Positions 33,538 through 53,971 are shown, counted from the first letter of the stretch. The stretch is 64,000 bases of DNA from an uncultured Candidatus Saccharibacteria bacterium (GCA_964399865.1 CAYNRJ010000002.1:161108-225107); one strand, 5' to 3'. Program-made: numbers and translations. Notes: a model not told the origin generated them from the sequence alone.

Positions 33538-33611
33538 TGCGGGATCGTCTAATGGTAGGACTACTGCCTCTGGAGCAGTGTATCTTGGTTCGAATCCAAG
33601 TCCCGCAGCCA
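33538..33611 (+). tRNA. tRNA-Gln (anticodon CUG), U1:A72, CCA encoded
   Basis: Hand-folded: acceptor UGCGGGA/UCCCGCA, D-arm GUCU-AAUGGUA-GGAC, anticodon arm ACUGC-CUCUGGA-GCAGU, T-arm CUUGG-UUCGAAU-CCAAG, then G-CCA. Confidence 0.85.
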
Positions 33612-33693
33612 CCACATGCTAAGTCAGGTGACTGACATGCATCAGGTCTCTATTCCGAAAAGGCATACCCGCTGAGTGCGGCATTCAAGACAG

Positions 33694-33721
33694 AAAAGTC
33701 GCCCCGAAATGGGCGACTTTT
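33694..33721. terminator. bidirectional rho-independent terminator
   Basis: aaaagtcgccc-cgaaat-gggcgactttt perfect 11-bp stem with T-runs on both strands, between tRNA-Gln (+) and the recombinase (-). Confidence 0.7.
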
Positions 33722-33724
33722 CTG

Positions 33725-35017
33725 TTATTCGAGCGTTATCTTTTTATCCTTCAGAAACAGTTTGCTTTGGAGGCATCCGAGCAATTCGCGCTTCTCTATA
33801 AGAGTTCCTTCTCTCAATAAGTACTTTGTGTAATTTCGTACATCCACATCAATAGCTATTTTGTCCTGCTTGTGTCCGAGCACACCTGATCTAAATTTGT
33901 TGAAGCGTTTTATCTCATCTTCGATTCTTGTTCTTACCCCAAGCTCGTCTAAGTTTACTGTATCCATTAATCCGATGAGTTCTTCAATCAGACTCGGCTC
34001 GTTTATCGGAGAATTCTTGCAGTCTATGTTTCGTGCCTTTGTGCAGAAGTAATACACGTGTCGATTCACGCCGCCATCTTTCAGTTTTTTGAATTTTTCG
34101 TCGGCTGATATCCCTGATCCACAGTGTCCGCATCGTATGAGTCTCGTAAAGGCGAACTCTTTGCTCTCAGTCTTTGGTATGTAGTTCGCATTCAGCGTCA
34201 TCTGTACTTTCATGAACAATTCTTTATCTATAATCGGCACATGTTTTCCTGTGTACCACTGTCCAGCACCTACTGGGTATTCAAAGTCTCCGTAGTAGAA
34301 CGGATTCCGTAAAATGATGTAAACATTTGCAAGCACAAGTGGTTTACCACGATGCGTCTTGAAGTCGATCTCTTTCAACCATCGGTATAATTTACGTCCG
34401 CTCCATTGTTCGTGTGCAACTTTCTCGAACATTTGCTTGATGACAGGCCCACGTTTTGGATCGATTCTGCACTGGCATTTTTTGTCGACATGTTTTTCGT
34501 TCAAGTATCCTGTCGGTGCAACTCCGGGTCTCCATCCCATTTCACATCTAGTGCGAAGTCCACGCTTCACATTTACTGCTTTGTTATCGTTCTCAAGTTT
34601 CGCCTGACTCCCCAGAATCATCAGAAGGAATTTCTCATTCGGGTTGTTGGTGAACTTCTGCCCATACGTGCGTATCTCGTGCAGGAGTTTCTGATCCATC
34701 AGATCTACGACCGACCCCAAATCTCCAGCATTTCTACTTAATCTATCTGGTGCCCATGTGAGTATTGCGTTGAATTTCTTCGAGCGTATATCCTCGATCA
34801 TTTGGTTGTACACAGGGCGTTGCCCAACCTCCTTTGAAGAGTGGGCCTCTCGTTTTATCTCGACAATATGCAGATGCTCTCGTTCAGCCAGTACCTGCAT
34901 TTCCTTTACTTGCGACTCTATTGAAAGCGCTTGCTTATCCTCCGCTTCGGTACTCTTACGGGCATAGAGGCAGTAGCGTAAAGCCTCTTGTGGTTGTGTT
35001 TTTTCCATATACCACAA
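33725..35017 (-). CDS. large serine recombinase (resolvase/invertase N-terminal domain, recombinase domain and zinc ribbon)
   Basis: CLYARKSTEAEDKQALSIESQ catalytic Ser region. C-terminal CGHCGSG...YYFC zinc ribbon and coiled coil. Confidence 0.88.
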   Translation of the reverse strand: MWYMEKTQPQEALRYCLYARKSTEAEDKQALSIESQVKEMQVLAEREHLHIVEIKREAHSSKEVGQRPVYNQMIEDIRSKKFNAILTWAPDRLSRNAGDLGSVVDLMDQKLLHEIRTYGQKFTNNPNEKFLLMILGSQAKLENDNKAVNVKRGLRTRCEMGWRPGVAPTGYLNEKHVDKKCQCRIDPKRGPVIKQMFEKVAHEQWSGRKLYRWLKEIDFKTHRGKPLVLANVYIILRNPFYYGDFEYPVGAGQWYTGKHVPIIDKELFMKVQMTLNANYIPKTESKEFAFTRLIRCGHCGSGISADEKFKKLKDGGVNRHVYYFCTKARNIDCKNSPINEPSLIEELIGLMDTVNLDELGVRTRIEDEIKRFNKFRSGVLGHKQDKIAIDVDVRNYTKYLLREGTLIEKRELLGCLQSKLFLKDKKITLE

Positions 35018-35131
35018 GAGATGACGCGATGGCCCTTAGGAGTCTAGGACGCATCAGTTGGTAACTGGGTGCCCAAATACCCCCCATGGGGTAGGTTTTT
35101 TCTTTATGAATTCCAGCTATACTATTCAGTA

Positions 35132-35545
35132 ATGACCTCTTGGTTTTCAATAATCGGAAAAGTGCTGCTTATCTTTGGACTTGTAGCCTTTTTGTCCCTT
35201 GGCATTTTTAGCGTGTCGAGTTCGACCATGAGCACGATGAACAGCAACGCAAACTGTCCTTTCGGTGGTCACTCAATAGTTATCTGTAAGATGAATCCGA
35301 TGGAACATATAGAGGAGTGGCAGAGCATGTTCACGATGCTACCAGCTCAAGACCTACTTTCGCTCCTTTTTGCACTCTTTGCACTTCTCGCTATAAGCAA
35401 ACTTAGATTCTGGAGTAAATTTTCAACACCTGAACCACCCCTTTTGCTTTCAAAGAATCAATACGCTCTTACAAACAGTTTTCGGATATTTGATCCGCTT
35501 AAGGAGGCGTTTTCAAGCGGAATTTTAAATCCCAAGATTTTCTAA
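35132..35545 (+). CDS. hypothetical membrane protein
   Basis: Start at MTSWFSIIGK. Two TM helices. Confidence 0.4.
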   Translation: MTSWFSIIGKVLLIFGLVAFLSLGIFSVSSSTMSTMNSNANCPFGGHSIVICKMNPMEHIEEWQSMFTMLPAQDLLSLLFALFALLAISKLRFWSKFSTPEPPLLLSKNQYALTNSFRIFDPLKEAFSSGILNPKIF

Positions 35546-35609
35546 ATAGTGTTTCTTTCTGTTAGGCAGTGCTTATCGGGCGCTGGCTTTATTAATTTAA
35601 TTTTATTCT

Positions 35610-36347
35610 ATGGAAGAAACAACACAACCACAACCAAAAACGCTTCTCACCATGCCAGTTGCAGTAATCATTGCCGGAGCACTTATTGCCGGTGCAGTTA
35701 TCTACAGCGGCAGCAAAACAGAGAGCCGAGAAGCGGCTAACAATCCGCAACAGCAGGTCGCCGCACAACAGACCGGTGATCTCGAGGCAATGAAACCGGT
35801 GTCAAAAGAAGATCATATACGAGGTAATCCGGATGCGCCGGTAAAGATTGTCGAATACTCGGACACCGAGTGCCCATTCTGCAAACGATTCCACCCGACC
35901 CTGCAACAGGTCATGGATGAATACGGCAAGAGCGGCAAAGTCGCGTGGGTATATCGGCACTTTCCACTCGATCAACTACACTCGAAAGCCCGCAAGGAAT
36001 CAGAGGCAACGGAATGTGCGGCGGAGCTTGGAGGCAATGATAAGTTCTGGGCGTACTTGGATCGGCTTATGGAAGTCACTCCGGCAAACAATGGACTCGA
36101 TCCGGCCGAGCTTCCGAAGATCGCACAGTATGTCGGTCTTGATACAGCCAAGTTCAATGAATGCCTCTCAAGCGGTAAGTACGCAAAGAAAATTGAGGAG
36201 CACGTGCAGAATGCAGTCGCTACCGGCGGCAACGGTACGCCGTGGAGCATTGTCGTAGGATCGAACGGCAAGAAGTATCCGCTCTCTGGAGCACAACCGT
36301 ACACGGCAGTAAAACAGCTCATTGATTCTGCTCTCGCTGGCAAGTAA
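35610..36347 (+). CDS. membrane-anchored DsbA-family thiol:disulfide oxidoreductase
   Basis: EYSDTECPFCKRFH is the CPFC active site. About 60% identical to the 20734..21507 product. Confidence 0.85.
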   Translation: MEETTQPQPKTLLTMPVAVIIAGALIAGAVIYSGSKTESREAANNPQQQVAAQQTGDLEAMKPVSKEDHIRGNPDAPVKIVEYSDTECPFCKRFHPTLQQVMDEYGKSGKVAWVYRHFPLDQLHSKARKESEATECAAELGGNDKFWAYLDRLMEVTPANNGLDPAELPKIAQYVGLDTAKFNECLSSGKYAKKIEEHVQNAVATGGNGTPWSIVVGSNGKKYPLSGAQPYTAVKQLIDSALAGK

Positions 36348-36352
36348 CGAGT

Positions 36353-36886
36353 ATGCAAGCCTTACTCAGCGTATTAAAAACGAGACGTTCACTGCTCATT
36401 GCGGTATGTGTGGCCGTATTCGTTTTTGCGCTCGCAGTGTGGCTACCCAATTTGCAGCTTCTAGCTACATTTTGGACTGATTCCGACGTGTCCATTACCG
36501 ACAAGGTTGCATTGTCATTGAAGCTCATTCCCTCAATCGCGACTAACTTCACCCTTCTCTCTGCCCTTTATACCGTTGTGATCGCGGTGCTCGCCGGAAT
36601 CAATGCGGCACTTATCACCGAACTGATCCGGACACGACGGATGGCAGTAGACGGAGTAGCTGCCGGTGGAGCAGGAATCATCGCAGGAGCGCTTGGTATC
36701 GGTTGTGCCGCATGTGGTTCGCTGATTATTACCGCGCTAGTCGGAACAAGCGTGGGAGCAACTCTAGTCGCTTTCTTACCGCTTGGAGACAATGAGTTCG
36801 GACTTATCGGCGTCGGCTTACTCGGCTATTCTATGTATCTCTTGACGAAGCAAATTAACAAAACAACGTGTGAAATAACAATATGA
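36353..36886 (+). CDS. hypothetical 4-TM membrane protein with an intramembrane CxxC
   Basis: GIGCAACGSL within a TM segment. Located between two DsbA genes. Confidence 0.45.
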   Translation: MQALLSVLKTRRSLLIAVCVAVFVFALAVWLPNLQLLATFWTDSDVSITDKVALSLKLIPSIATNFTLLSALYTVVIAVLAGINAALITELIRTRRMAVDGVAAGGAGIIAGALGIGCAACGSLIITALVGTSVGATLVAFLPLGDNEFGLIGVGLLGYSMYLLTKQINKTTCEITI

Positions 36887-37545
36887 AAATGAAAAGTACC
36901 TATATCTGGCTCGGCGTGGGTGTTGTAATTATTGGCGCTCTGTTCATTTCCGCAAAGTTTCTTGATAAGACTCCCGCTCCCGCAGTATCGGGTCCTGAAA
37001 CAACAAACATACTGGCGGTAGTGGCAGATGACCACATGAAAGGAAATCCGGACGCGAAAGTGACACTCGTCGAATACCTCGACTTTGAATGCGAGGCATG
37101 TGGCGCGTACTATCCGCTTATCAAACAACTTGGTGCGGAATTCCCGAACGACCTCCGTGTCGTGACGCGCTACTTCCCACTGCCCGGGCACAAGAACAGC
37201 ATGACTGCGGCAATTGCAGTCGAAGCGGCGTCAAAGCAAGATAAGTATTGGGAGATGCACGACAAGCTCTTCGAGACGCAAGAGACGTGGGGCAACAAAC
37301 AGATGCCGACGCCGCAAGTCTTTGAGCAATACGCACAAAAGATTGGTCTCGACATGGAAAAATTCAAGGCCGATGTGGCTGATCCTGCGACGAAAGCTCG
37401 GGTACAGCGCGATTTCGACGCGAGCGAGAAGCTCGGCAACAACGCTACCCCCTCTCTCTTTGTGAACGGGAAGAAGATACAGAATCCCAAAAGTTACGAG
37501 GCGTTCAAGCAGCTTATTCAATCGGAAATTGATAAAGCAAATTGA
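36883..37545 (+). CDS. DsbA-family thioredoxin-fold protein (CEAC active site)
   Basis: LVEYLDFECEACGAYYP CxxC motif and a signal anchor. Confidence 0.8.
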   Translation: MKMKSTYIWLGVGVVIIGALFISAKFLDKTPAPAVSGPETTNILAVVADDHMKGNPDAKVTLVEYLDFECEACGAYYPLIKQLGAEFPNDLRVVTRYFPLPGHKNSMTAAIAVEAASKQDKYWEMHDKLFETQETWGNKQMPTPQVFEQYAQKIGLDMEKFKADVADPATKARVQRDFDASEKLGNNATPSLFVNGKKIQNPKSYEAFKQLIQSEIDKAN

Positions 37546-38113
37546 TAGTATGACCCTTGACGCCTACTCAACCATCCTCGTATCCGGTTCAATCGCGATG
37601 TTTGCGGCACTTCTCGGGGCATGCATGGCATATTTCGCGTCACTCACCGCACGGAAAAAGTTGAGAGATATTCCGTACGAATATTACCTATCCGCTCTCG
37701 CTGCCATCTCACTCATTGCCATCGCGGGATCGTTAACCTATCAGCTCGTATACCTGACTCCGGTCTGCGAATTGTGCTGGTGGCAGCGCATCTTTCTGTA
37801 TCCGGTGAGCGTAATAACGCTTGTGGCGTTATGGTACAAGACGCGTGAGACACACGTAACGGTCGCGATACTTGCTGCGTTCGGGTTGTGGTATGCGCTC
37901 TACCATTACTATTATCATTTTCAGGGATTCGTTCTTGGTAATACACTGACGCTTCCGTGCTCGTACGGCGGACTCATGCCTGCGTGCACGGACTCGCCGA
38001 TCCTAGTGTTTGGATTCGCAACCATTCCTTTCATGGGCATCATGGTCTTCGGCAGTATACTGATGCTGTCAGGCCTTGCCTTTGGAACGCTATACCGAAC
38101 TCACAGCAAATAA
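37529..38113 (+). CDS. dsbB: DsbB/BdbC-family disulfide bond formation protein B
   Basis: PVCELCWWQRIFLYP (C-x-x-C-x-x-Q-R) and a second Cys pair LPCSYGGLMPAC. Four TM helices. Confidence 0.75.
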   Translation: MIKQIDSMTLDAYSTILVSGSIAMFAALLGACMAYFASLTARKKLRDIPYEYYLSALAAISLIAIAGSLTYQLVYLTPVCELCWWQRIFLYPVSVITLVALWYKTRETHVTVAILAAFGLWYALYHYYYHFQGFVLGNTLTLPCSYGGLMPACTDSPILVFGFATIPFMGIMVFGSILMLSGLAFGTLYRTHSK

Positions 38114-38165
38114 TTATTCTCGCAGTTATTAAATAAACACATCAAAGCTCAGTAATATAGTTCTT

Positions 38166-39386
38166 ATGGAATTACTATCGTACCTTTGGCAGTACATCGT
38201 CCAAACATTCGGTCTCATCATCGCGTACGGAGCCGCAGCGGTTCTGTTGTTTCTTCTGTTGCGCCGGTTTCATTCGTGGAAGATAACGGCCGCGCTGGTC
38301 GCGATTTTCATCGGTATCTCGATCGCGTTCTATCTTCCGAATGGCCTCCCGAATAGTTTGCAATATCCATTGAGCTTACAGACATTCGGTCCGAGTGAGG
38401 GCCCCGTGCTTCCGTTCAAGAATGTCGTACAGTTTTTCAGGAATTTCAATTCGTTTGAACGGATAAAAAACATCGCAAAGAATCCTGCCGATTTACCGCC
38501 GCCGTTAAACCGCACCGAGCCGCAAGTGGTTAAGATCGAGTTGACAACAAAAGAAGTTATCGCGGACATCGCGCCCGGAGTCACGCTCAATTACTGGACC
38601 TTCAACGGTACTGTGCCGGGGCCGTTCCTGCGCGCTCGCGAAGGCGACACGGTGGAACTCACGCTCACAAACGATACGACCAGCCTCCACGTGCACAATA
38701 TAGATTTGCATGCGGTCAACGGCCCTGGCGGAGGTGCCGGGGCGACTAACGTCGCTCCCGGGGAATCGAAGACTTTCCGTTTCAAAGCGCTCAACCCCGG
38801 CCTCTATGTGTACCACTGTGCCCATCCCAATGTGCCAAGCCATATGACGCACGGACTCTACGGGCTTATCCTCATCGAATCGAAAGAGGGATTGCCGCCT
38901 GTCGACAAGGAATTTTACGTCATGCAGGGAGAATTCTACACCTCGGGCGCTTTGGGCCGGAAGGGACTACAGCTCTTCGATGCGCAGGCGATGCTCGATG
39001 GGAAACCGCAGTACGTCGTGTTCAACGGAAAGACAGGCGCTCTTACAGACGTCATGAACGTAGACGTCGGCGAAACCGTGCGGCTCTATGTGGGAAATGG
39101 CGGTGTCAACCTCGTTTCGAGTTTCCACGTCATAGGCGAAGTGTTCGACAAAGTATATAGAGAGGGAGACATAGTGAGCCCCCCCGCGCGAAGCGTTCAG
39201 ACGACTCTCATTCCGGCAGGTGGTGCAGCTGTCGTCGAGTTCAAAGCCGACTATCCAGGTAACTACGTGCTTGTCGACCATGCACTCGCGAGAGTCGACC
39301 GCGGTGCATGGGGCCTGCTTAAAGTTGAAGGTGAACCTGATCCGAAAGTATTCGACGGAAAAATTGAAAGCGGAGGCGGGCATTAA
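38166..39386 (+). CDS. copper-containing nitrite reductase family (NirK-like) two-domain multicopper oxidase, membrane anchored
   Basis: HVHNIDLHAVNG (type 2 Cu His ligands) and YVYHCAHP...HMTHGLYG (type 1 Cu Cys/His/Met). Confidence 0.8.
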   Translation: MELLSYLWQYIVQTFGLIIAYGAAAVLLFLLLRRFHSWKITAALVAIFIGISIAFYLPNGLPNSLQYPLSLQTFGPSEGPVLPFKNVVQFFRNFNSFERIKNIAKNPADLPPPLNRTEPQVVKIELTTKEVIADIAPGVTLNYWTFNGTVPGPFLRAREGDTVELTLTNDTTSLHVHNIDLHAVNGPGGGAGATNVAPGESKTFRFKALNPGLYVYHCAHPNVPSHMTHGLYGLILIESKEGLPPVDKEFYVMQGEFYTSGALGRKGLQLFDAQAMLDGKPQYVVFNGKTGALTDVMNVDVGETVRLYVGNGGVNLVSSFHVIGEVFDKVYREGDIVSPPARSVQTTLIPAGGAAVVEFKADYPGNYVLVDHALARVDRGAWGLLKVEGEPDPKVFDGKIESGGGH

Positions 39387-39869
39387 TAAAAACAGTTACT
39401 TACTATTTGTGGAAAATACAACATCAGAAAGGAACGATGCTTCGGCAGTGAATAAGGCAAGGTTGCCGTGACTGAAGCAGAAATAGATACCTACCTTAAA
39501 GACTCAAAAGCTACTCCTCCGAAGGACGTAAAGATGGAGGACTTCAGAAGACAGATAAGCGATCAGCTCAAACAACAAAAATTCCAGCAGGAGGCACAGA
39601 AGTGGGTATCCGATCTTACCGCAAGTGCGAAGATAAAGTATTACGTAAATTACTAATCTTAATCATTCATAATTTTATGAACATTCAACTCGTATTAAAA
39701 GCATTAAAAGATCATGCAAAAGAAGAAATTCGTATCCACAAGGAAATATTCAGTGAGGCTGGTGGAGATGTGAAAGACCTGGTCGAAAAACACTTGAGTG
39801 ACACCATGGCGATTCACAAAGCTTTCTGGAAAAAACTCAAGAAAGCCGTTGAAAAATAACAAATCACTT

Positions 39870-40281
39870 ATGAATGAACACTTAGATAAAATTCAACAAA
39901 AAAGTCGCTGTCACAGTAATCTTAGCTATTCTACTTTTTGTTTTCGGTTGGTATGTTGTCAACGATAAAAACATGGCTCAAAGAGTTGATGGTCAGGACG
40001 AAAGTACAGTTATCAATACACAGCCAGAAGTAAAATCTTATACGCTGGCCGAAGTCGCCACACATAATTCTGAGACAGATTGTTAGATGGCAATCGAGGG
40101 CAACGTCTACGATGCGACTAAATTTATTCCCAGTCATCCTGGAGACAAGGCTATTCTCAACGGATGTGGGAAAGACGCGACCGTGCTTTTTCACGAACGA
40201 CCTACAAACGATAGGGGACCTCACCCCGCACAGGCAAAAGCCGCTCTTGATCAGTTTTATATAGGTGAGCTAAAACAGTAA
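39870..40281 (+). pseudogene. cytochrome b5-like heme-binding protein, disrupted
   Basis: A heme-binding HPGD motif (canonical cyt b5 HPGG) follows the stop. An in-frame TAG sits where the conserved Trp is expected (...SETDC*MAIEGNVYD). A +1 frame change at an A6 run (39898-39903) separates MNEHLDKIQQK from the TM anchor KKVAVTVILAILLFVF. Confidence 0.55.
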
Positions 40282-40434
40282 ATTGCCATAGTGTCTGTTT
40301 GGGGTGAATGGTACGTACTATCTCAACAAAAAGCTCAATTCTTGTTGGGAATAAAAAAGGTATAAAAACCCTTTATCTTAAGCCATTGTATGGAGTTGAA
40401 AATGGCGGGTTAGCTTTGGTAAAATTAAGAATCC

Positions 40435-41610: not shown

Positions 41611-41649
41611 GCAGGTTTTCCACATATTGATTTGACTCTATACCCCCTA

Positions 41650-41658
41650 GGGGGTATA
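41650..41658 (+). promoter_or_regulatory. -10-like element GGGTATACT upstream of csoR
   Basis: ccctagggggtatacttg is immediately upstream of the csoR ORF. The preceding cccctaggggg palindrome could be a CsoR operator. Confidence 0.35.
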
Positions 41659-41659
41659 C

Positions 41660-41944: not shown

Positions 41945-41949
41945 TTTAT

Positions 41950-46101: not shown

Positions 46102-46114
46102 GATAGCTTTAATT

Positions 46115-46528: not shown

Positions 46529-46567
46529 GTGTTTTTTACTAAGACACTGCCTCGTTAAAAAGAGTCT

Positions 46568-46780: not shown

Positions 46781-46836
46781 ACCTACACAAACAAGTGTAG
46801 GTAGTCGCTAACTTTGGTTCTACATACTATAGTTAG

Positions 46837-46921
46837 CGCACTGAATACGCACTAAGTCCAGACTGTTGGCAACTCCTCCCAGGCCCCTTCGCAAGGTCCA
46901 TAATGTATGCTAACTATAGTA
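46837..46921. promoter_or_regulatory. pair of palindromic operator-like sites in a divergent promoter region
   Basis: catactatagttagc (46837-51) and its exact reverse complement gctaactatagtatg (46907-21) each contain the palindrome AACTATAGTT. An additional perfect hairpin cctacac-aaacaa-gtgtagg lies at 46786-46805. Confidence 0.5.
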
Positions 46922-46952
46922 TGCATTACCCGATAACACATTTATTAGCTTT

Positions 46953-47498
46953 ATGAGCCAAAAACGTTGGATAGTAGCATTGGCAATTGCAGTCCTTCTG
47001 GCAGCCTCTGGCGGCGCATACTACTGGTACACCGGCACTCCGCAGTACGCCCTTGGGCAAGTCAAGAAAGCGTACGAGACGCACGATACGGACCTTGCCT
47101 TCAAGTACATAGACTTCGATTCGGTATTTGACAGCTTCTGGTCTGACATCCAAAAGCAGTTAACCGAAGAGGCTACGAAAACCGAGAACGAATGGGAGGC
47201 ATTCGGGACGATGATCGGGCAAGGCATCGTTCAGAACATGAAACCAATGCTCAAGGATCGGCTTAAAACAGAATTGACCGATGCGGTCCGAAATACTGAG
47301 CAGGTCGAAGATAACAATCTGTCAAAGTTGGCAGAGACGTATTCACTCAGGCAGGAAGGCAAAATTGCCATTGTCGAAGGCGATAGCCCCCTGAAGCTGC
47401 ACCTTGAAAAGCGAAGTGAGCATCATTGGCGCGTTGTTGCGATAAAGGGCTGGACTGCGGACATGGGTTCGGAAGCGGCAACAACAACCGAACAGTAA
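46953..47498 (+). CDS. hypothetical membrane-anchored protein
   Basis: Signal anchor and an acidic soluble domain. Confidence 0.45.
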   Translation: MSQKRWIVALAIAVLLAASGGAYYWYTGTPQYALGQVKKAYETHDTDLAFKYIDFDSVFDSFWSDIQKQLTEEATKTENEWEAFGTMIGQGIVQNMKPMLKDRLKTELTDAVRNTEQVEDNNLSKLAETYSLRQEGKIAIVEGDSPLKLHLEKRSEHHWRVVAIKGWTADMGSEAATTTEQ

Positions 47499-47499
47499 T

Positions 47500-48285
47500 A
47501 TGGCCCTCTTTACCTTCGTCAGTTCGTTTCTCGAAAAACGCAAAGGCCTCAAAGAGTATCAAGAATTACTCAATCGTTTCTTGAGCGATGGCGTTCTCTC
47601 AGACGATGAAAAACGACAGCTCAAAGATATGCAGACACAATTTGAGCTGTCCGACGATGACGTGCGAAAACTGCAGCAAATCGGTGCTTCAAATGCATTC
47701 AAACAAATCGCATCCGATGAGCGCATTACCGAAGACGAGAAAAAGTCGCTTGAGGCGATCGTTACTCACTTCGGGCTCGACTTTAAAGACATCTCGTTCG
47801 ATCAAAAAGCCTTTAACAAGTACTATACCCTCGCTCTCATCGAACAAGGCATTCTGCCCACCATCAAGGAAGGTAATCACGATCTCAATATCCTATTCAA
47901 AGACGGAGAGATTTTGCACTACGGTCAGTCCGCGACGCTTCGCAAACTCAAACGGGTCACCACGCGCGTCAATTACGGTGGTTTTACCGCCTCCATCAAA
48001 ATCACCAAGGGCGTACGATATCGCGCAGGAACTATCGGTGTTGGAGCACAAACAACGGAGACCCTCGCAGAAGAGGACACCGGCGGCTTCTACCTCACCA
48101 ATCAACGTGTCGGATACATCGGTAGCCGCAAGCATTTCTCACTGCCGTACAGTAAGATAGGTTCGTTCGAGCTGCGTTCCGAAGGTCTCTATATCTTCAA
48201 GGACGGCAAAGAAGTCCCGTACATTCTCACCATGGACGATTACGAAGTGCCGCTTGCCATCGTCTCCCATATCCTCAACGACTAG
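47500..48285 (+). CDS. hypothetical protein with a bacterial PH-like (bPH_2/YdbT-like) C-terminal domain
   Basis: GFYLTNQRVGYIG...FSLPYSKIGSFEL resembles the bPH_2 motif. Confidence 0.45.
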   Translation: MALFTFVSSFLEKRKGLKEYQELLNRFLSDGVLSDDEKRQLKDMQTQFELSDDDVRKLQQIGASNAFKQIASDERITEDEKKSLEAIVTHFGLDFKDISFDQKAFNKYYTLALIEQGILPTIKEGNHDLNILFKDGEILHYGQSATLRKLKRVTTRVNYGGFTASIKITKGVRYRAGTIGVGAQTTETLAEEDTGGFYLTNQRVGYIGSRKHFSLPYSKIGSFELRSEGLYIFKDGKEVPYILTMDDYEVPLAIVSHILND

Positions 48286-48478
48286 TCCGACGTCTTTTGC
48301 TTTTCTTCCTAAATGGCAGTGACGGTTGGTTATGGTGTTTGGCAGACGCTTTTTCTATTTTCCGCAGCAGCTGTATGCACACGCCCAGGAGTCTCTGAAC
48401 GTATTTAATGTTCTCAATGTCCTCTGGGCGCATCACCCAAGGGATGACACAGAGGTCCGAATATGCCGAGTTGGCAAC

Positions 48479-49972
48479 TTAAAAGCGAGTATCCATCCGC
48501 AACGGATGCCAACTCTCGCCATCATCCCATCTGTTTGGACTGAGATCGATGACCAAAAATTGTGGTGCGCCTCGGTCGAATTGAATTGCGTGGTGAGCGA
48601 CGAGCGTGAACGCATCAACGAGGTCGTCGTGTCGTTCAACACCAAAGCCGACAATTTGGCGTATTAGTGCCTCTGCACCATGCCTTGGAAACTTGATCTT
48701 CCCGCTCTGGATCATCGCTGAGATAGAGATGAGGCGCGAGCGTTTGTCAGCGCTCACTTTGATGCCCTCCACGTTTAGAGCGTCATGTGTCAATTGGTCG
48801 ACTACCGCTTTTTGATACCCAACTTCTTCAACTAGAATATGTGAGGAGTATATTTTCTTGTTTGCGTCGCTGATATCTTTAATCTGTTTTATCGTCTCCG
48901 GAAAATTCATGCGCTTGTTGATGATGTTGGGAAGGATGTAGACGCAGAAATTTTCATCATGGCTAATGAGCGCACTCACCATCGCGGTATAGTCAGCGGT
49001 TTCCTTTTGAGAGATTGCCAGATCAACACCGGTGAATATGCCGTGATAGGTATCTCGCCGCTGGGGGAGCGCATCGTAGTAGTGGATCCATGTTTTCTGT
49101 ATAACCTGATCTTCGTCGGGGACGATTCGTAGGAGATACTCTCGTTGCCAGGCATACTCGTTGCCACTTTTCATTTTCTCCTCGGCGATAGCTTCCTGCG
49201 TAGGGTACTTACCTGGCCAGGCAACAGCACCTTCGGTCGTTAACAGTGGGAACATTTTGAAGATTCCATTACGCTGCCCCTCATCGATATCTCGCCGTAG
49301 CCGCATGACCAAAGAATCTTCGTGTAGAAGATTGCCCACCACTACAAACCGGGTACCGCGATCACCGAGTGGCATCACTTCGCCGCAAAGCCAGTTATAT
49401 ATCTTTTGCCGATTCTCGTACGTTTTGACCGACGCCATATCCTCAAGGTCGTCACAGATAATGAGGTCGGGACGGTGCTGGTTGTGGCGAAGACCACGAA
49501 TACTTTGCTCAGTCGAGACCGCCATGATTTTTGCTTTCAGTTGCGGAAACACTAAAGCCGAAGCACCCCACTCACCGTTTTCTTCTTGAAAGGGTCCGAG
49601 GTCGTTGCGTAGCAAACTATTGCTCTCTAATTCGCGCTTCAAGTTAATGAGGTGTTGCTTGGCTTGAGTCTGCGTTTGGCAGATGATAAGCACGAATTTC
49701 TTTTGTTGCACGCCGAGCATGGCCCAGAGGGAGTATGAAAAGGTAACAAGGGTTGATTTACCGGAACCGCGAAAAGCGACAATGACCACGAGCTTGTTCG
49801 CACTATCTTCGGTAATGCGAAATATGTCCTTTTGGAATTCAGCTATGGGATACGTGACGTAGTGGGAGAAATACACGTAAAAGAACATGAGATGACTCTC
49901 GCGGGTCACCGTGCGTCTCACTAAACGATCCCGTGCGATCGCCTCGAATGTTACGGTATCATTCGTTTCCAT
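48479..49972 (-). CDS. terL: phage terminase large subunit
   Basis: Walker A AFRGSGKST, LIICDDLEDM Walker B-like ATPase core and a C-terminal RNase H-like nuclease. Confidence 0.85.
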   Translation of the reverse strand: METNDTVTFEAIARDRLVRRTVTRESHLMFFYVYFSHYVTYPIAEFQKDIFRITEDSANKLVVIVAFRGSGKSTLVTFSYSLWAMLGVQQKKFVLIICQTQTQAKQHLINLKRELESNSLLRNDLGPFQEENGEWGASALVFPQLKAKIMAVSTEQSIRGLRHNQHRPDLIICDDLEDMASVKTYENRQKIYNWLCGEVMPLGDRGTRFVVVGNLLHEDSLVMRLRRDIDEGQRNGIFKMFPLLTTEGAVAWPGKYPTQEAIAEEKMKSGNEYAWQREYLLRIVPDEDQVIQKTWIHYYDALPQRRDTYHGIFTGVDLAISQKETADYTAMVSALISHDENFCVYILPNIINKRMNFPETIKQIKDISDANKKIYSSHILVEEVGYQKAVVDQLTHDALNVEGIKVSADKRSRLISISAMIQSGKIKFPRHGAEALIRQIVGFGVERHDDLVDAFTLVAHHAIQFDRGAPQFLVIDLSPNRWDDGESWHPLRMDTRF

Positions 49973-50357
49973 GGCTTTTGAGATTTACATCTGCAAGCTC
50001 CAGTGCCTTTCGCACTAGTTCTTTCTGTTCCGGCGAGAGTTCCTGAATCGTATTAACGGTACCCTCGATTTCGACCCGCGTTTTATATGACGGGTGGTGA
50101 TGTTTGAGCCAGTACATGATCGCGGCAAAGTTCCTGTCCTTGACTGCGCCAATGAGCTGGCTTTCTGCTAAGTCGTTTACAAGGAGTCGACCATCAAAAA
50201 TGGCTTCATCTATTTTCTTGGCGAAATCTCCATCTTCATTTTTCCATCGATAGAAGGTCCAGCGGCTGATACCGAGTTTTTCACACGCAATCTGCACGAT
50301 TGGCGTTTTCTTTAGTTGCTCGAGCAATGCCTCTTTTGTCTGTTCTGTCTTTTTCAT
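49959..50357 (-). CDS. terminase small subunit-like HTH protein
   Basis: IACEKLGISRWTFYRWK helix-turn-helix. Immediately upstream of and overlapping terL. Start taken at MKKTEQTKEAL. Confidence 0.55.
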   Translation of the reverse strand: MKKTEQTKEALLEQLKKTPIVQIACEKLGISRWTFYRWKNEDGDFAKKIDEAIFDGRLLVNDLAESQLIGAVKDRNFAAIMYWLKHHHPSYKTRVEIEGTVNTIQELSPEQKELVRKALELADVNLKSHGNE

Positions 50358-51118
50358 ATGCGCTTCGCTTTCTTGCCCGTCATTTTTTCCCAACGCTTGA
50401 TGATGGTCTGGCAGTACTCGGAGTCGAGTTCGATACCGAAACAACGGCGTTTGGTCTGCTCGCACGCCAAGAGGGTCGTGCCGCTCCCAAGGAAGCCGTC
50501 AAAGATTACGTCGCCCATACTAGTGCTGTTGAAAACAAGTCGTCGTACGAGTCCGATTGGTTTGGTGGTCGGATGCAATTTGCTCTTGTTGGGGCGTGGG
50601 TAAAAGAGTACTGATTTATCTTTGGAACGGCGGAAATGATGCGTGCCATACCAGCCATACACGATGAGTTCGTGCTGTGGGGCGTAGTCCAATCTGCCGA
50701 TGACCGACTGCTGCTTTACCCACACAAGTAGCTGTGCAATCTTGAATCCGCTGTCAGCCATGCCGTCGCGCAACGACCACACCATCTTGTCGGCGTTGAA
50801 GATGTATGCGCTGTTTTTCTTGGCGAGGTATGGCACCAACGCCTTCAACCACTCCTTGCTGAATTGGCGGTACTCGTCATCCGATTGCAACTGGTCGCCA
50901 ACGATGTCCTTGTCTTTGGTGAGCGTGCGAAAGTTGCGTTTGGATTCGGCAACCGCAACCCCATATGGAGGATCGGTGCAGAGCACATTGACGCGCTCAT
51001 CGCCAAGCAACTTCTTGAGAAGCTTCGCATCGCGACAATCTCCTTGCGCGAGTCTATGCTCTCCGAGCTGCCAGATACTAGCGGAGCTTTTTTGATTTTT
51101 GTCTGGTGAGTTTTTCAT
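50354..51118 (-). CDS. DNA methyltransferase (N6-adenine/N4-cytosine, beta class)
   Basis: Motif IV DPPYG precedes motif I FDGFLGSGTT. Confidence 0.9.
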   Translation of the reverse strand: MKNSPDKNQKSSASIWQLGEHRLAQGDCRDAKLLKKLLGDERVNVLCTDPPYGVAVAESKRNFRTLTKDKDIVGDQLQSDDEYRQFSKEWLKALVPYLAKKNSAYIFNADKMVWSLRDGMADSGFKIAQLLVWVKQQSVIGRLDYAPQHELIVYGWYGTHHFRRSKDKSVLFYPRPNKSKLHPTTKPIGLVRRLVFNSTSMGDVIFDGFLGSGTTLLACEQTKRRCFGIELDSEYCQTIIKRWEKMTGKKAKRI

Positions 51119-52355
51119 AGCGGCGTATTACCAAGTCAACGAATATCGGCTCGCGTTCGACCAAGTACGCAGAGCGCTTGAGCTGTTCACATGCCACGAG
51201 CAAGCTGCCCGAGCCACCAAAACAGTCGAGAATGATGTCGCCGGGCTTTGTGCAGCGTCGCAGAGCTTTCTCATGGAGCATCGGCGGCTTCTCGGTGGGG
51301 TGCTGGTAGTCGGTGCCGTTGAGGCGTTTGACCATCCAAATGTCGATCATGTCGTAGATGTCCTCCAGCGTGCGGTTGCCAGTACCGATCTCTTTGTTGA
51401 ACACCTCAGACAAATTCAATACTTTCTCACTCAAGTACGGCCTACCGACCGTGCCGTACACGCACGGCTCGTATTGCTTGTTGAAAGCGACTTGTGGTGT
51501 AGGTGTTGAGTTGTTCTTTACCCACAAGCACACACGCTTGTTGGCGATGCCGAGTTCGGCATACAGCGTCTGCAAGAGCCATATGTACTTCTGATCACAG
51601 TACGTGAATACGTGCGCGTCCTTGTCGAGAACCGACAGCGCATTCTCAAGCGCCATCTTGAGGAACTTTTTGTATTCATTGTCCGGCTTCGCGTCATCGA
51701 CCGTGCCGCCGTAGTTACGCTTGCCGCCGATGCCTTTGTTGTAGTCGAGCGAAATATTGTATGGAGGATCTTGGAGAATGGACTGTGCTTTCTTACCGCC
51801 CATCAATTTATTGAGCACGTCAGGATCGGTGCTATCGCCGCAGATAATGCGGTGCGTGCCGAGTTGGTACAGTTCGCCCAACTTGGATTTCGGCTTTTTG
51901 ATTTTCTCCAGCTCCTTCTCGATATCAAACTCATCGTCCTCGACCTCGAGATCATCGAAGATGTGTGCCATATCGGTGTCGTCGAAGCCGCTTACAAGGA
52001 GCGTATCGATGTCGAAGTTGTCCGCGAGTGCTTGCCAGTCCCAATCGCCATGGATGCGGTTGCTTCCAAGGAGATACTGGTCGTATTCCTTTTGTGTCAG
52101 CTTGCGGTTTGGCACGCGCACGGGAATGCTCTCGTGCTCGCGTCCCAAGAGCTTGAGCACCATGAGACGTTGGTGACCGGCGATCACGGTGTTGTCGGCA
52201 TCGACGACCGGCAATTCGACGAGGTCAAACTTTTTGAGTGAGCGCTTCAAGTCCTCGATCTGCTTCGGCGACATCGTGCGCGGATTTTTTATGTTGGGCA
52301 CGAGGTCGCTAATCTTGCATTCGGCCGTGTGCCATTGAAGTCTTTGCTGTGCCAT
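51078..52355 (-). CDS. ParB-like nuclease N-terminal domain fused to a DNA methyltransferase
   Basis: N-terminal ParB/Srx fold (PVVDADNTVIAGHQRLMVLK). Then DPPYN and DCFGGSGS methyltransferase motifs. Confidence 0.88.
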   Translation of the reverse strand: MAQQRLQWHTAECKISDLVPNIKNPRTMSPKQIEDLKRSLKKFDLVELPVVDADNTVIAGHQRLMVLKLLGREHESIPVRVPNRKLTQKEYDQYLLGSNRIHGDWDWQALADNFDIDTLLVSGFDDTDMAHIFDDLEVEDDEFDIEKELEKIKKPKSKLGELYQLGTHRIICGDSTDPDVLNKLMGGKKAQSILQDPPYNISLDYNKGIGGKRNYGGTVDDAKPDNEYKKFLKMALENALSVLDKDAHVFTYCDQKYIWLLQTLYAELGIANKRVCLWVKNNSTPTPQVAFNKQYEPCVYGTVGRPYLSEKVLNLSEVFNKEIGTGNRTLEDIYDMIDIWMVKRLNGTDYQHPTEKPPMLHEKALRRCTKPGDIILDCFGGSGSLLVACEQLKRSAYLVEREPIFVDLVIRRYEKLTRQKSKKLR

Positions 52356-52439
52356 ATATCTCTATCTGCAGAGATTTCAGCGGCAACAATAAAATGGCTC
52401 TACGCATAGCGTGAGATGCTGAGAAAATCAGAAAACGCC

Positions 52440-52470
52440 CGCTGAGATTTCAGCGGTTGCAACAATGAGT
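52440..52470 (-). terminator. rho-independent terminator (minus strand)
   Basis: Minus-strand ccgctga-aatc-tcagcgg followed by gcgttttctgatttt. Confidence 0.45.
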
Positions 52471-52477
52471 ACTCCTC

Positions 52478-53299
52478 TCAGTTCTCTTCAGAATCTTCTT
52501 CTTGGATCGCATTATCAAGCAATCTACCTCCTGAGCGATGGAGCTCACCACCACCGCGCAGAATGGATTCTGATCTGAGCTTGCACTTGAGCTGGTAGCC
52601 GCAGTGGGGGTCGTAGAAATTGAAGGGACTGTCGGCAATCCCGAGCGCTGACGAAAGTTTTTGTGCTAGTGCCTGTTTGTTTTTCTGGAGTGCTGCTTTT
52701 GTTATGTTAAGTGAGCGGGACAAATTCTCCGTCGTCGGTACCATCATCTTTTTCTGCTCTGCGATAATGGATAGCTGGAGGAGAAGACCCCATTGCTTAT
52801 CTGGTTTACGGTCGCGCGTATTCTTGCGCGCAAAGCCGAGATCCGAATAATCGCAGTCTCGCATTCGGTTTCCTTTATAGAAGACCGAGAGCGTATAGAG
52901 ATCCTTGAAGCGTAATTCAAGATGTTCCCATCGTGTATCACTCGGCAACTCAACTACAGCGCGTTTCGATTCGATAATTTCAAGATCTCGAGGGATTGGT
53001 GATACTGCCCATTCTGGCCGGGAAGGAATAGTAAGTGGTGTGGCAGCTGCTTTCATGGCGATGTCGAACCGCGACATATCTTCCACGGCAGCCTGCATCA
53101 TTCGGTGAAATCGCGTTAGCGATTCCAATGCAGGAGCCATGGATAGCATCATGCGTTTTTGAGATTCGTGCAAATTAGCTAGTGTTTGTGCATATGGCGC
53201 TATCATACGGGCGGCATACGTGGCATATCGTTCAGCATCGTGCTGAGCGTTTGTGAACAGTGAAAGTGTATTGGATCTGAGCACGGGGAAGGTCGACAT
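52478..53299 (-). CDS. hypothetical protein (273 aa), divergent from the repressor gene
   Basis: ORF only. No family recognised. Confidence 0.45.
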   Translation of the reverse strand: MSTFPVLRSNTLSLFTNAQHDAERYATYAARMIAPYAQTLANLHESQKRMMLSMAPALESLTRFHRMMQAAVEDMSRFDIAMKAAATPLTIPSRPEWAVSPIPRDLEIIESKRAVVELPSDTRWEHLELRFKDLYTLSVFYKGNRMRDCDYSDLGFARKNTRDRKPDKQWGLLLQLSIIAEQKKMMVPTTENLSRSLNITKAALQKNKQALAQKLSSALGIADSPFNFYDPHCGYQLKCKLRSESILRGGGELHRSGGRLLDNAIQEEDSEEN

Positions 53300-53321
53300 G
53301 CTTCCATTCTAACACTAGTTG

Positions 53322-53348
53322 ACAGTTGTGGACAAGGGTGTATCATTT
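53322..53348 (+). promoter_or_regulatory. sigma70-type promoter TTGACA-N16-TATCAT
   Basis: ttgacagttgtggacaagggtgtatcat ends 6 nt before the ATG at 53354. Confidence 0.5.
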
Positions 53349-53353
53349 CTCGT

Positions 53354-53971
53354 ATGAACCGGACCACAAAGAAGGACTTAGAAGGCTACGCTCTTATACG
53401 CAATCAGATCATGCATACCGGTGTTACGCCCTCCCTGCGTGAGATTGGGAGGGCTATTGGATACGTATCACCGCGCTCTGTACAGCTCATGTTGAAGCGA
53501 CTCCAAGTTCGAGGGCTTCTTTTGTATGAGGGGGGCGTTATTAAGCTTTCCTCGAAGAAAACCCCAACGATGTCGGAGCAGACAGTGAATGTTCCGTTGG
53601 TTGGTTCGGTTGCGTGCGGCCTACCGTCGCTTGCAGAGCAAGATGTTGAGGCGCTTATCCCGATTTCAACGCGCATTGCACGGCCCGGGCATACATACTT
53701 TCTGCTTCGTGCTGTCGGAACATCGATGAACAAGTCGGGCATCAATGATGGTGACCTGGCGCTAGTGCGTCAGCAGCCGAGCGCCAGCGACGGAGAGAAA
53801 GTAGTGGCCCTCATCAACGACGAGGCGACGATCAAACATCTCCATCACGAGGAGGGGGTGATTGTGCTCAAGCCGAACTCTACGGATCCGGCGCACAAGC
53901 CGATAGTTCTTTCAGACGAATTTATTATTCAGGGAGTTGTTACCGCAACACTCCCTGCCAATCTCTATTAG
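53354..53971 (+). CDS. LexA/CI-like repressor with an S24 peptidase domain
   Basis: N-terminal winged HTH. C-terminal S24 VGSVACGLP...AVGTSMNKSGINDGDLALV (Ser-Lys dyad). Confidence 0.85.
   Translation: MNRTTKKDLEGYALIRNQIMHTGVTPSLREIGRAIGYVSPRSVQLMLKRLQVRGLLLYEGGVIKLSSKKTPTMSEQTVNVPLVGSVACGLPSLAEQDVEALIPISTRIARPGHTYFLLRAVGTSMNKSGINDGDLALVRQQPSASDGEKVVALINDEATIKHLHHEEGVIVLKPNSTDPAHKPIVLSDEFIIQGVVTATLPANLY

Follow-up and report, generated by a model that had tools for sequence, protein, structure and literature searches.

Among the described systems closest to the locus reported here are the PICIs and SaPIs, which are phage-derived, integrate site-specifically, encode an integrase, a repressor and TerS, and carry accessory cargo but no structural or lysis genes (PICI core components as defined in PMC10085698). 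These features recur in a 21.8-kb capsid-less terminase island at tRNA-Gln (~33612-55406), whose size is near that of the larger PICIs, within a 64,000-nucleotide stretch of DNA (hereafter, the window) from a Kaiserbacteria-like CPR (ultra-small) bacterium. Unlike PICIs, which use a tyrosine integrase, the window element has a serine integrase, is without an AlpA/Stl-type regulator or a primase-replicase, and has TerL and two methylases in addition; the repressor belongs to the LexA family and the host is a CPR bacterium. The cfPICIs are likewise satellites with their own TerS and TerL, but are defined by capsid, portal, protease, and head-tail adaptor/connector genes as well (PMC10085698), none of which occurs in the window element.

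Integration by a large serine recombinase is shared with two other satellite-type groups, the Vibrio cholerae PLEs and the marine VEIMEs, the latter of which can have TerS, R-M, and Abi-like genes among their cargo (PMC9618062, where the Tycheposons of Prochlorococcus are also mentioned). PLEs and VEIMEs have been shown to be encapsidated, whereas the window element is known from sequence alone; they have no gene content in common with it beyond the recombinase class, and neither a tRNA-mimicking attP arm nor a LexA/TerL/ParB-MTase core is described for them. The PICMIs of Vibrionaceae resemble the small (3-6 kb) members of the family described below in being similarly minimal, with defence cargo and no capsid-remodelling genes, but they integrate beside fis, encode three core excision/replication proteins, and have no terS (PMC10803314), while the window element targets a tRNA and encodes both TerS and TerL. 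Temperate phages with large serine integrases, SPbeta among them, have the same integrase domain architecture and an attP with dyad-like arms; the window element differs in having no virion genes, a tRNA 3' end as target, and one tRNA-mimicking attP arm. Tycheposons also target tRNAs; they are integrative elements of streamlined genomes, where they form tandem arrays and carry niche-adaptive cargo, and the described ones mostly have tyrosine recombinases and replication modules. To our knowledge, no terminase/methylase/LexA core has been described for them; compared by description only, they resemble the window family in tRNA targeting, tandem arrays, and cargo shuttling. No description of this large island family was found in the literature.

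We consider it probable (roughly 0.6) that positions 33612-55406 form one integrated phage-satellite-like mobile element rather than a decaying prophage. An earlier note on this DNA had placed an element at 33538-53971. Its integration at tRNA-Gln stands, while the right boundary moves 1.4 kb further right to ~55406, which brings in three more genes (for a DUF2188 protein, a ThsB-like TIR protein, and a protein of 198 aa) and, at the very end, a conserved non-coding block. Every gene listed in that note was found, most domain matches lying above curated cut-offs. The two ends comprise the following features.

33538-33611, plus strand: tRNA-Gln(CUG), integration target and B arm of attL (ARAGORN and Rfam)
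33608-33632, plus strand: attL junction CAGC/CACC/ACATGCTAAGTCAGGTGAC, core plus conserved P' motif
33690-33725, no strand: bidirectional terminator hairpin with a perfect 15-bp stem, separating the tRNA from the recombinase 3' end
33725-35008, minus strand: large serine recombinase (integrase), 427 aa (Pfam, PHROG)
55259-55406, plus strand: conserved non-coding terminal block (R-block), ending in the attR P arm (alignment of relatives)
55384-55406, plus strand: attR P arm GGTTCCAGACTGAGTCAGTCAGC, 23 nt, imitating the tRNA-Gln 3' half
55407-55444, plus strand: host side of attR (B'), AAAATGAGC, hairpin CACCGCgaattttGCGGcG, then an inverted 14-mer

The left end adjoins the tRNA-Gln 3' end at the conserved P' motif (ACATGCTAAGTCAGGTGAC), and the tRNA, terminator, and recombinase follow one another as first described. 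P' is present as a single copy in the window. Of 80 related recombinase loci, 51 contain it, and in 28 cases it lies 2-5 nt past a called tRNA 3' end. The recombinase contains Resolvase (PF00239), Recombinase (PF07508), and Zn_ribbon_recom (PF13408) domains, all above cut-off, together with the catalytic-serine motif YARKST, and matches the phrog_95 integrase at 8e-62; among solved proteins, the SPbeta YokA integrase is closest to it. It is the putative enzyme that inserted the element at the tRNA-Gln 3' end.

At the right end, 99.9% identity over 17 kb (NirK to R-block) to L001, a locus sampled independently and flanked differently on the right, stops at 55409, and two further relatives (L061 and L062) diverge at the base homologous to the right end in the window. 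The R-block is also single-copy, and no internal att remnants were detected in the window at up to 3 mismatches. The 14-mer of B', unique in the window, is an exact inverted copy of the tRNA-Gln 3' end, and B' resembles the sequence 3' of an unoccupied tRNA-Gln in L005; the flank past the far end has the look of the terminator that originally followed the tRNA. Unoccupied tRNA-Gln sites were found in L004, L005, and L008, and in the first two, where TGT-tRNA-Gln synteny is kept, neither a recombinase nor a junction motif follows the tRNA. Both attL and attR are definable: relatives share the element-side arms and differ in the host-side ones. In L119, at a tRNA-Lys site, the P arm has changed in step with the tRNA that is targeted. 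The predicted attP is …GTCAGTCAGC-CA..-ACATGCTAAGTCAGG and the predicted restored attB is …CCCGCAGC-AAAATGAGCACCGCG; att motifs of the window element were absent from IMG/VR. The comparison with relatives suggested in the earlier note therefore yielded both unoccupied sites (L004, L005) and two placed junctions, in agreement with its claim of an integrated element at tRNA-Gln, and the region is not syntenic in all relatives without att junctions. Since both junctions lie inside the window, structural phage genes past its edge are irrelevant.

The recombinase module (33536-35101) is 99.6-99.8% identical in L052 and L054, again at tRNA-Gln. The host of these loci differs, having its own tRNA-Gln and flanking genes of 68% identity; the tRNA-Gln of L052 carries compensatory stem changes, and the sequence after the tRNA is identical to the window. 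Given this near-identity in different host species at tRNA-Gln and the unoccupied sites in relatives, the module has been recently mobile. L052 and L054 part from the window exactly at 35101, and among second hosts only this 1.5-kb module was seen, not the whole 21.8 kb. Beyond it lies a cargo slot of 13.4 kb, between TerL and the recombinase.

35102-39386, plus strand: cargo part 1, beginning with a hypothetical 158-160-aa protein
35610-36347, plus strand: DsbA-like protein (Pfam), separated from DsbA by a plus-strand hypothetical 177-aa protein
36883-37545, plus strand: DsbA (Pfam)
37529-38113, plus strand: DsbB (Pfam)
38166-39386, plus strand: NirK (equivalog TIGR02376)
39602-41610, plus strand: small ORFs and M23 peptidase (Pfam; precomputed Pfam match on the identical L001 gene)
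40087-40281, plus strand: cytochrome-b5-like 64-aa ORF
40435-41610, plus strand: Csd3-like M23 peptidase (Pfam; PHROG matches confined to the M23 domain)
41660-46528, plus strand: cargo part 2, with CsoR, a CopA-type P1B ATPase, an HMA-DsbD_2 membrane protein, a cupredoxin, an HXXEE protein, and a hypothetical 137-aa protein (Pfam, NCBIfam)
46568-46780, minus strand: XRE-type HTH regulator (Pfam)
46568-46952, minus strand: XRE gene and the region upstream of it, containing two operator-like palindromes and inverted repeats I1, I4, and I5
46953-48285, plus strand: DUF2939 protein (PDC-S55-like) and hypothetical 261-aa protein with a partial PDC-S48 match (Pfam, PADLOC)

Pfam and NCBIfam matches agree with the earlier inventory of two DsbA proteins, DsbB, a NirK-like Cu oxidase, CsoR-CopA-HMA, a cupredoxin, and an M23 peptidase; NirK passes TIGR02376 with 354.5 bits against a cut-off of 296.3. 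The XRE gene with palindromic operators is also present as claimed, GCTAACTATAGTTAGC-like palindromes lying near it at 46806-46838 and 46907-46926. The description of this cargo as metal resistance is too narrow; it is better read as NirK plus a likely electron donor, together with copper-handling and disulfide-bond genes. Across the family, this slot, bounded by the recombinase and by TerL or TerS, is variable and holds 0-11 genes. In L058 and L061 it is filled by orthologues of cargo part 2 (80-94% identity), and cargo order differs among these two loci and the window.

This variable order, the confinement of shared sequence in L052 and L054 to 33536-35101 with divergence at 35101, a GC mosaic along the element (0.43-0.52), assembly breaks on both sides of the recombinase, and the tandem arrays common in the family would all suit a composite island, in which the recombinase, copper/Dsb/NirK, and LexA-methylase-terminase blocks reached a tRNA-Gln hotspot independently of one another and no longer move jointly, present mobility being confined to the recombinase module or to smaller units. 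We find this account doubtful, as the window contains a single P' and a single R-block with no internal att remnant (≤3 mismatches), the variable slot is a family-wide feature, L058 and L061 have copper cargo in that slot as well, and between NirK and the R-block an independent sample with another right flank matches the window at 99.9% over 17 kb.

The remainder of the element consists of a packaging operon, a divergent repressor, and right-end defence-type genes.

48479-49972, minus strand: terminase large subunit TerL (phrog_38 at 2e-80)
49959-50357, minus strand: terminase small subunit TerS, 132 aa as called (phrog_309, 4044, 4102)
50354-51118, minus strand: N6/N4 DNA methyltransferase (Pfam, PHROG 498/620, PADLOC MTase_II)
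51078-52355, minus strand: ParB-domain-methyltransferase fusion (Pfam, PHROG 498/620, PADLOC MTase_II)
52478-53299, minus strand: hypothetical 273-aa protein, first gene of the packaging operon
53354-53971, plus strand: LexA-family repressor, divergent from the packaging operon (TIGR00498)
53974-55258, plus strand: DUF2188 protein (PDC-S16), ThsB-like TIR protein, and hypothetical 198-aa protein (Pfam, PADLOC)

PHROG and Pfam confirm the two terminase subunits and the two methyltransferases, one fused to ParB, that had been reported here. TerL has intact Walker A (AFRGSGKS) and Walker B (DLIICDD) motifs that align to T7 gp19, and is under strong purifying selection (dN 0.07, dS saturated); across TerL, the methyltransferases, LexA, and the cargo genes, dN/dS is 0.02-0.08 or dS is saturated. 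TerS matches phrog_309 at 7e-12, and its longest ORF extends to 50465. The 273-aa protein has no family match in Pfam, PHROG, NCBIfam, or PADLOC, and its position is variable, equivalents in relatives being non-homologous and without similarity. The repressor passes TIGR00498 (137.2 bits, cut-off 110.95), contains Pfam LexA_DNA_bind (winged-helix) and Peptidase_S24 domains, and matches solved LexA structures over its full length. Aligned to E. coli LexA, it keeps the Ser/Lys dyad (Ser in GTSM, Lys in IKHL) and has Cys-Gly instead of Ala-Gly at the cleavage site, as in UmuD. It had been called an S24 repressor, which is correct for the domain; more exactly, it is a full-length LexA-family protein encoded inside the element. 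The same divergent arrangement occurs in L058, L065, L079, L148, L152, L158, and L163. A search for a LexA operator found none definable, and Pfam and PHROG recognised no alpA/merR/stl-type regulator in the element ORFs, LexA and XRE being the only regulators.

As the earlier note had observed, capsid, portal, and tail genes are missing: Pfam and PHROG scans of all element ORFs returned no such family, and no portal, protease, capsid, head-tail adaptor/connector, or lysis gene was found in 33612-55406. Tape-measure, minor-head, and endolysin families were the sole structural-category PHROG matches, all of them through the M23 peptidase domain, and the same library does recognise structural genes in related phage contigs. 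Scans of Pfam, PHROG, and NCBIfam also gave no match to a replication module (primase, helicase, Rep) in any element ORF and no recognisable candidate for a recombination directionality factor in the window. The missing replication module, the absence of TerL from many family members, and the many defence-type genes of the element and its relatives (ThsB-TIR, PDC-S16, PDC-S48/S55-like, and, in relatives, R-M systems) could speak for a non-transducing island that uses TerS, TerL, and the ParB-methylase for phage-packaging interference or DNA processing and spreads by transformation or vesicles. This seems improbable, because a conserved TerS/TerL pair that is complete and has kept its ATPase motifs is a DNA-packaging signature, satellites use TerS for redirection (PMC10085698), and interference and transduction can coexist.

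In JGI metagenomes, >438 relatives of the recombinase were found, and TerL homologues number >3853, most of them from CPR contigs, which reach 631 kb. The family order is P'-recombinase-cargo slot-TerL-TerS-(MTase)-ParB-MTase-variable gene, often followed by a divergent LexA-like repressor and defence-type genes before the P arm. P' and the P arm recur in fixed orientation in many related recombinase loci, with P' to R-block spacings of 2.9-9 kb across the family; P-P' junctions are formed in tandem arrays. Some relatives encode a 68-aa excisionase-like HTH protein (cluster c15; judged by eye from sequence). In IMG/VR phage contigs, genes for portal, protease, major head, adaptor, and tail come after ParB-MTase, TerS, and TerL. 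The packaging module descends from a phage lineage in which it precedes portal, protease, capsid, and tail genes, all of which are absent from the element lineage.

That clearly phage-derived module, and the classification of related contigs as viral by IMG/VR, would be expected of a once-complete temperate phage whose structural genes were deleted and whose terminase and methylase genes are leftovers being lost. Such decay is highly improbable here: the capsid-less layout recurs in dozens of loci at 40-90% TerL identity, compact members have the recombinase gene directly after TerL or TerS, TerL shows the constraint and intact ATPase motifs given above, and in an NJ, midpoint-rooted tree without support values the 16 recombinase-linked TerLs do not mix with the 34 portal-linked ones, the element TerLs being monophyletic. 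Between the options in the earlier note, a capsid-less layout that is kept down to 57% TerL identity, purifying selection with core-gene dN/dS of about 0.03-0.08 or lower, and the separate TerL clade thus favour a satellite/PICI-like or island-type element over a degraded prophage. A vertically inherited, ordinary chromosomal neighbourhood without mobility, to which the many genes of L058 and L061 at 80-94% amino-acid identity in similar order might point, is practically untenable and contradicted by syntenic relatives with unoccupied tRNA-Gln sites, the near-identical recombinase module in a different host, near-identical elements with unrelated flanks, and the seven tRNA target types used by the family.

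For a phage-satellite-like mobile element, the gene content suggests the following life cycle. The element-borne LexA would silence the methylase-TerS-TerL operon, and its self-cleavage upon DNA damage or infection by a helper would end that silencing. The recombinase, with a directionality factor, would then excise the element, and TerS and TerL may load its DNA into procapsids from a hypothetical helper phage of related lineage, and the methylases would shield that DNA once it reaches a new host. Travelling with the element, its cargo would benefit the host: NirK and cupredoxin, genes for copper export and sensing and for disulfide-bond formation, and candidate defence genes.

The region at tRNA-Gln(CUG) very probably holds an integrated serine-recombinase element with ends at window positions ~33612 and 55406 (21.8 kb), a placement that follows from both junctions together with motifs conserved across the recombinase family. 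The large serine recombinase beside the tRNA carries all three hallmark domains, and a metagenome scan with this protein returned >438 relatives, from which 80 loci at 64–94% identity were retained. An element-side motif, P′ (ACATGCTAAGTCAGGTGAC), occurs in 51 of these 80 loci in a single fixed orientation relative to the recombinase. Twenty-eight copies lie 2–5 nt after a called tRNA 3′ end (Gln 19; Asn, Lys, and Arg 2 each; Glu, Leu, and Met 1 each), and further copies follow tRNA-like remnants; this recombinase family integrates site-specifically at tRNA 3′ ends. A right-end block (R-block, GGTTC.AGAC.GAGTCAGTCAGC), always in the same orientation, is found 2.9–9 kb away on the other side of the recombinase. 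In four loci (L087, L100, L126, and L142) a second P′ lies 4 nt past the block, the P-core-P′ order predicted where tandem elements join. Exactly one P′ and one R-block are present in the window:

Features at the element junctions (window coordinates)
33538-33611, tRNA-Gln(CUG)
33614-33632, P′ motif
33690-33725, perfect 15-bp hairpin
55384-55406, R-block

The right end was resolved by comparison with relatives. L001, a contig of an independent sample, matches window positions 38406–55409 at 99.9% identity and is unrelated beyond, and two near-identical sister-lineage elements (L061 and L062, 99.8%) part at the homologous base. The 150 nt before the divergence point form a conserved non-coding block ending …GAGTCAGTCAGC (five loci aligned: the window, L001, L058, L061, and L062). 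This right-end block matches the 3′ half of tRNA-Gln (GGTTCGAATCCAAGTCCCGCAGC) at 17 of 23 positions, and the equivalent arm of a tRNA-Lys-targeting member ends GGGGCAC, like tRNA-Lys; the element-borne arm therefore imitates its target. No tRNA-derived direct repeats were found within the window, as the tRNA copy is too degenerate for a repeat search and the far end is detected only through relatives. Rfam searches of the window and of the conserved terminal block returned two tRNAs only, with the terminal block unmatched, and in IMG/VR one of the P′ and R-block motifs gave a single chance match without related genes and the other none. The junctions read …CCCGCAGC-CACC-ACATGCTAAG… (attL) and …GTCAGTCAGC-AAAA-TGAGCACCGCGAATTTTGCGG… (attR), with a predicted attP of GGTTCCAGACTGAGTCAGTCAGC+CA(CC)+ACATGCTAAGTCAGGTGAC and a predicted attB of GGTTCGAATCCAAGTCCCGCAGC+AAAATGAGCACCGCGAATTTTGCGG. 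Integration at tRNA-Gln, as proposed in the earlier note, stands; the right end it placed at 53971 moves to 55406 on the evidence of the R-block and the L001 divergence.

Two relatives, L004 and L005, keep the synteny of tRNA-Gln with TGT, the gene adjoining it on the host side. Their sites are taken as unoccupied because neither a recombinase nor a P′ motif follows the tRNA, so the empty sites by which integration was to be checked do exist in syntenic genomes. The attR flank (AAA, then a hairpin) resembles the sequence after the unoccupied tRNA-Gln of L005. L004, the nearest of the genomes whose site is unoccupied, has a type III-like restriction-modification set beyond the tRNA (3678–9757), in which a Fic-domain gene separates Mod from Res, and the tRNA-Gln flank is thus variable even without the element.

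Several other features were observed around the right end. An exact inverted copy of a 14-nt tRNA-Gln 3′ segment (AATCCAAGTCCCGC), unique in the window, lies 25 nt outside attR (55431–55444), and the minus strand at 55430–55530 has the sequence GCGGGA…TCCCGC, reminiscent of a gutted tRNA's acceptor stem. The inverted 14-mer may represent the B′ half-site of a symmetric attB, or what is left of an earlier inverted insertion. Inverted similarity of both junctions reached z ~3, with some shuffles scoring higher, and was dropped as a main argument. Immediately right of the element (55811–57661, GC 0.37–0.39) is a pair encoding an AbiU2-like HEPN protein and a DUF4238 protein. Strain L001, 99.9% identical otherwise, lacks the pair and has DUF1801, RibD_C, and LamG genes in its place; this looks like a second variable defence spot adjoining the element. 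A ~33-nt repeat (TAgaAtAGTTCCAAcATCGTCCATGACCCCCAG) at 57664–57696, 57969–58001, and 58367–58399, with an interrupted copy at 59206–59260, begins at the stop codon of each in a row of small, unrelated genes (DUF4238, an 83-aa ORF, diacylglycerol kinase, and a 99-aa ORF). Two near-exact copies compare with 0 expected by chance, and the arrangement looks like a gene-cassette array.

The housekeeping genes left of the tRNA encode TsaD, Sua5, an IMPDH-family protein, PGA_cap, and TGT. The host is a CPR (Patescibacteria) bacterium near Candidatus Kaiserbacteria: the best genome match of TGT (77%) is a Kaiserbacteria metagenome-assembled genome (MAG), and its remaining close matches are all Parcubacteria-type MAGs. 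The exact recombinase protein was also found on contigs of other samples. In two of these loci, L052 and L054, the DNA is 99.6–99.8% identical to window positions 33536–35101 and unrelated outside that interval. The flank of L052 belongs to another organism, where adenosine deaminase takes the place of TGT and the nucleotide identity of the IMPDH gene is 68%. The tRNA-Gln of L052 has its own compensatory changes in the acceptor and anticodon stems relative to the window, so that identity begins only at the last tRNA bases. At least the recombinase module has recently moved between species, each time into the 3′ end of tRNA-Gln. The 55-nt flank of L052 past the recombinase has no match in the window or in the other loci. 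In addition, L052 carries a small ORF, GIY-YIG-like as judged by sequence, between the intact tRNA-Gln and another, interrupted copy of the tRNA 5′ part (1621–2017).

Every gene listed in the earlier note was recovered within the window. The copper oxidase exceeds the curated NirK equivalog threshold, and the XRE regulator has two palindromes upstream; alongside them are CsoR, the CopA-type ATPase, the HMA-DsbD_2 and cupredoxin proteins, an M23 peptidase, DsbB, and two DsbA-like proteins. The terminase small and large subunits (TerS and TerL), a ParB-methyltransferase fusion, and a second methyltransferase were likewise confirmed. The reported absence of virion genes also held: no portal, capsid, or tail family was detected by Pfam or PHROG across all ORFs of the interval, where structural-category PHROG matches are restricted to the M23 peptidase domain.

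Across the family, a variable cargo slot accompanies a conserved operon for packaging and methylation that derives from phages. In compact members (L090, L097, L116, L132, and L140) ParB-methyltransferase-TerS-TerL is followed directly by the recombinase on the same strand; in another group (L066–L069, L074–L078, L082, and L145) the recombinase comes after ParB-methyltransferase-TerS, without TerL; and in a third group 2–11 unrelated genes separate TerL or TerS from the recombinase. The same slot in the window holds 13.4 kb of cargo (35102–48478), and its start explains why L052 and L054 diverge at 35101. Within this widespread family, the window element is a large member, rich in cargo. Judged by sequence only, the genes that relatives have upstream of the methylase resemble restriction-modification systems (type I, IIG, and III), helicases, and TIR proteins, and the equivalent window region encodes a DUF2188 protein (PADLOC PDC-S16), a ThsB-like TIR protein, and an unknown protein. 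The first operon gene (273 aa) has no family or PDB match and no homology to the position-equivalent genes of relatives. Between it and the ParB-methylase gene, two 25-nt direct repeats (GCAGAGATTTCAGCGGCAACAATAA, GCTGAGATTTCAGCGGTTGCAACAA) and a hairpin (CCGCTGAGATTTCAGCGG) at 52356–52477 may be a regulatory, pac, or ParB-binding site. RVT_1 genes with bAvd accessory genes, marks of diversity-generating retroelements, occur within or beside some members (L065 3643–5169 and 15500–20858; L132; L134), and 72 bp of the DUF2939 gene (window 47304–47375) are deleted in-frame in strain L001.

TerL has >3853 homologues at E<1e-10, the named ones almost all from CPR bacteria and on contigs of up to 631 kb, and its Walker A and Walker B motifs line up with the corresponding T7 gp19 motifs. 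In the comparison with phages that the earlier note had called for, the best identity to cultured phages was only ~27%; the window TerL as a single query had no match in IMG/VR, where a profile of homologues was needed. Contigs with TerLs 50–57% identical have the element layout (LexA, methyltransferase, TerS, TerL, then recombinase). Those with TerLs 34–45% identical are phages: Sak4-like and O-like replication genes and a ParB-type methylase come before TerS-TerL, and genes for the portal, head protease, major head protein, head-tail adaptor, and tail proteins come after it. This phage lineage is represented in L156, L176, L183, L184, L198, and ~30 other IMG/VR loci, with the portal fused to a head-morphogenesis domain; IMGVR_UViG_3300025323_000513 is one of the portal-bearing sister phages. 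A neighbour-joining TerL tree (midpoint-rooted, without support values) places all recombinase-linked or element-type sequences on one side and all 34 portal-linked TerLs on the other; the portal-bearing phages thus appear to be the sister group of the element terminases, and are candidate helpers. Compared with its 89% relatives, the window shows a dN of 0.04–0.12 and saturated dS; dN/dS is ~0.02–0.08 for genes with estimable dS (methylases, LexA, and cargo), TerL being saturated and giving no ratio. A degraded prophage, one option of the earlier note for such a capsid-less region, is disfavoured by the split of TerL from the portal-linked clade and by this selection: the capsid-less state is old, monophyletic, and under selection, which argues for a satellite-like lineage, and the satellite or island option is the best supported.

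A 205-aa protein scoring above the LexA equivalog cut-off aligns end-to-end with solved LexA structures and keeps the catalytic Ser and Lys and a Cys-Gly cleavage site. Since its gene lies inside the element boundaries, it is treated as the element's own repressor. As here, LexA-family genes are transcribed divergently from the methylase-terminase operon in seven further loci (L058, L065 (57% TerL), L079, L148, L152, L158, and L163), and no LexA operator was definable, as the upstream regions of the compared loci are too divergent.

The cargo includes NirK, a cupredoxin, a cytochrome-b5-like ORF, a CopA-type ATPase with CsoR, the HMA-DsbD_2 protein, and DsbA/DsbB. Cupredoxins are usual electron donors to NirK, and from their predicted functions these genes look like a self-sufficient kit for making and supplying an extracytoplasmic copper enzyme while controlling copper. 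Two relatives with 89% TerL identity (L058 and L061) carry copper genes in the same slot in other combinations; one pairs a three-domain multicopper oxidase with an RND pump, and another joins CsoR-CopA to FAD and SurA-like genes. Danczak et al. described nirK with cupredoxin in Kaiserbacteria bins and argued against recent acquisition from outside CPR (PMC5581439). The position of NirK on a mobile element agrees with that view and gives a route by which it could spread among CPR bacteria.

Taken together, we tentatively propose, at a probability of roughly 0.4, an ancient CPR-wide lineage of capsid-less satellites with its own complete terminase and protective methylases, a self-encoded LexA switch, and an attP arm imitating the 3′ end of the target tRNA, serving as a main vehicle for respiratory (NirK and its copper supply) and defence genes among ultra-small bacteria. 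In such a lineage, the LexA-family repressor would silence the operon until RecA-stimulated self-cleavage, after which excision would follow. TerS and TerL would then package the element's DNA into procapsids provided by a sister-clade helper phage, and the methylases would guard the DNA against the abundant restriction systems of new hosts. For mobilisation in helper-phage capsids itself we consider the odds even. Family scans of the window ORFs found no replication gene and no directionality factor.

The element acts like a phage satellite but fits the definition of none of the named families. PICIs have an AlpA/Stl regulator and a primase-replicase and cfPICIs a capsid set, all missing here (definitions in PMC10085698). 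PICMIs, considered as a TerS-bearing analogue, were ruled out because they are without terS, and share only the small size of some members of this family (PMC10803314); with PLEs and some VEIMEs the recombinase class is the sole thing in common (PMC9618062). One survey covering horizontal transfer in Patescibacteria speaks of genomic islands and prophages, and not of terminases, recombinases, or tRNA targets (PMC12455944). No description of the element family was found in the literature searched, whose incomplete coverage makes this absence of evidence only.

The genomes of CPR bacteria are tiny, few mobile elements have been recognised in them, and little is known of their phages. If the joint satellite reading is true, this would be the first satellite family in the radiation as far as we are aware, with a core gene set unlike that of any named satellite family. 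The fixed architecture with its cargo slot provides a concrete mechanism for patchy traits in CPR, such as nirK in Kaiserbacteria. The serine recombinase, P′ motif, and tRNA-mimic arm can serve as markers for screening metagenomes for elements and insertion sites, and candidate helpers are indicated by the sister phage clade, which has portal and capsid genes. If packaging is confirmed, satellite biology would reach a new phylum, with a new type that has both terminase subunits and no capsid.
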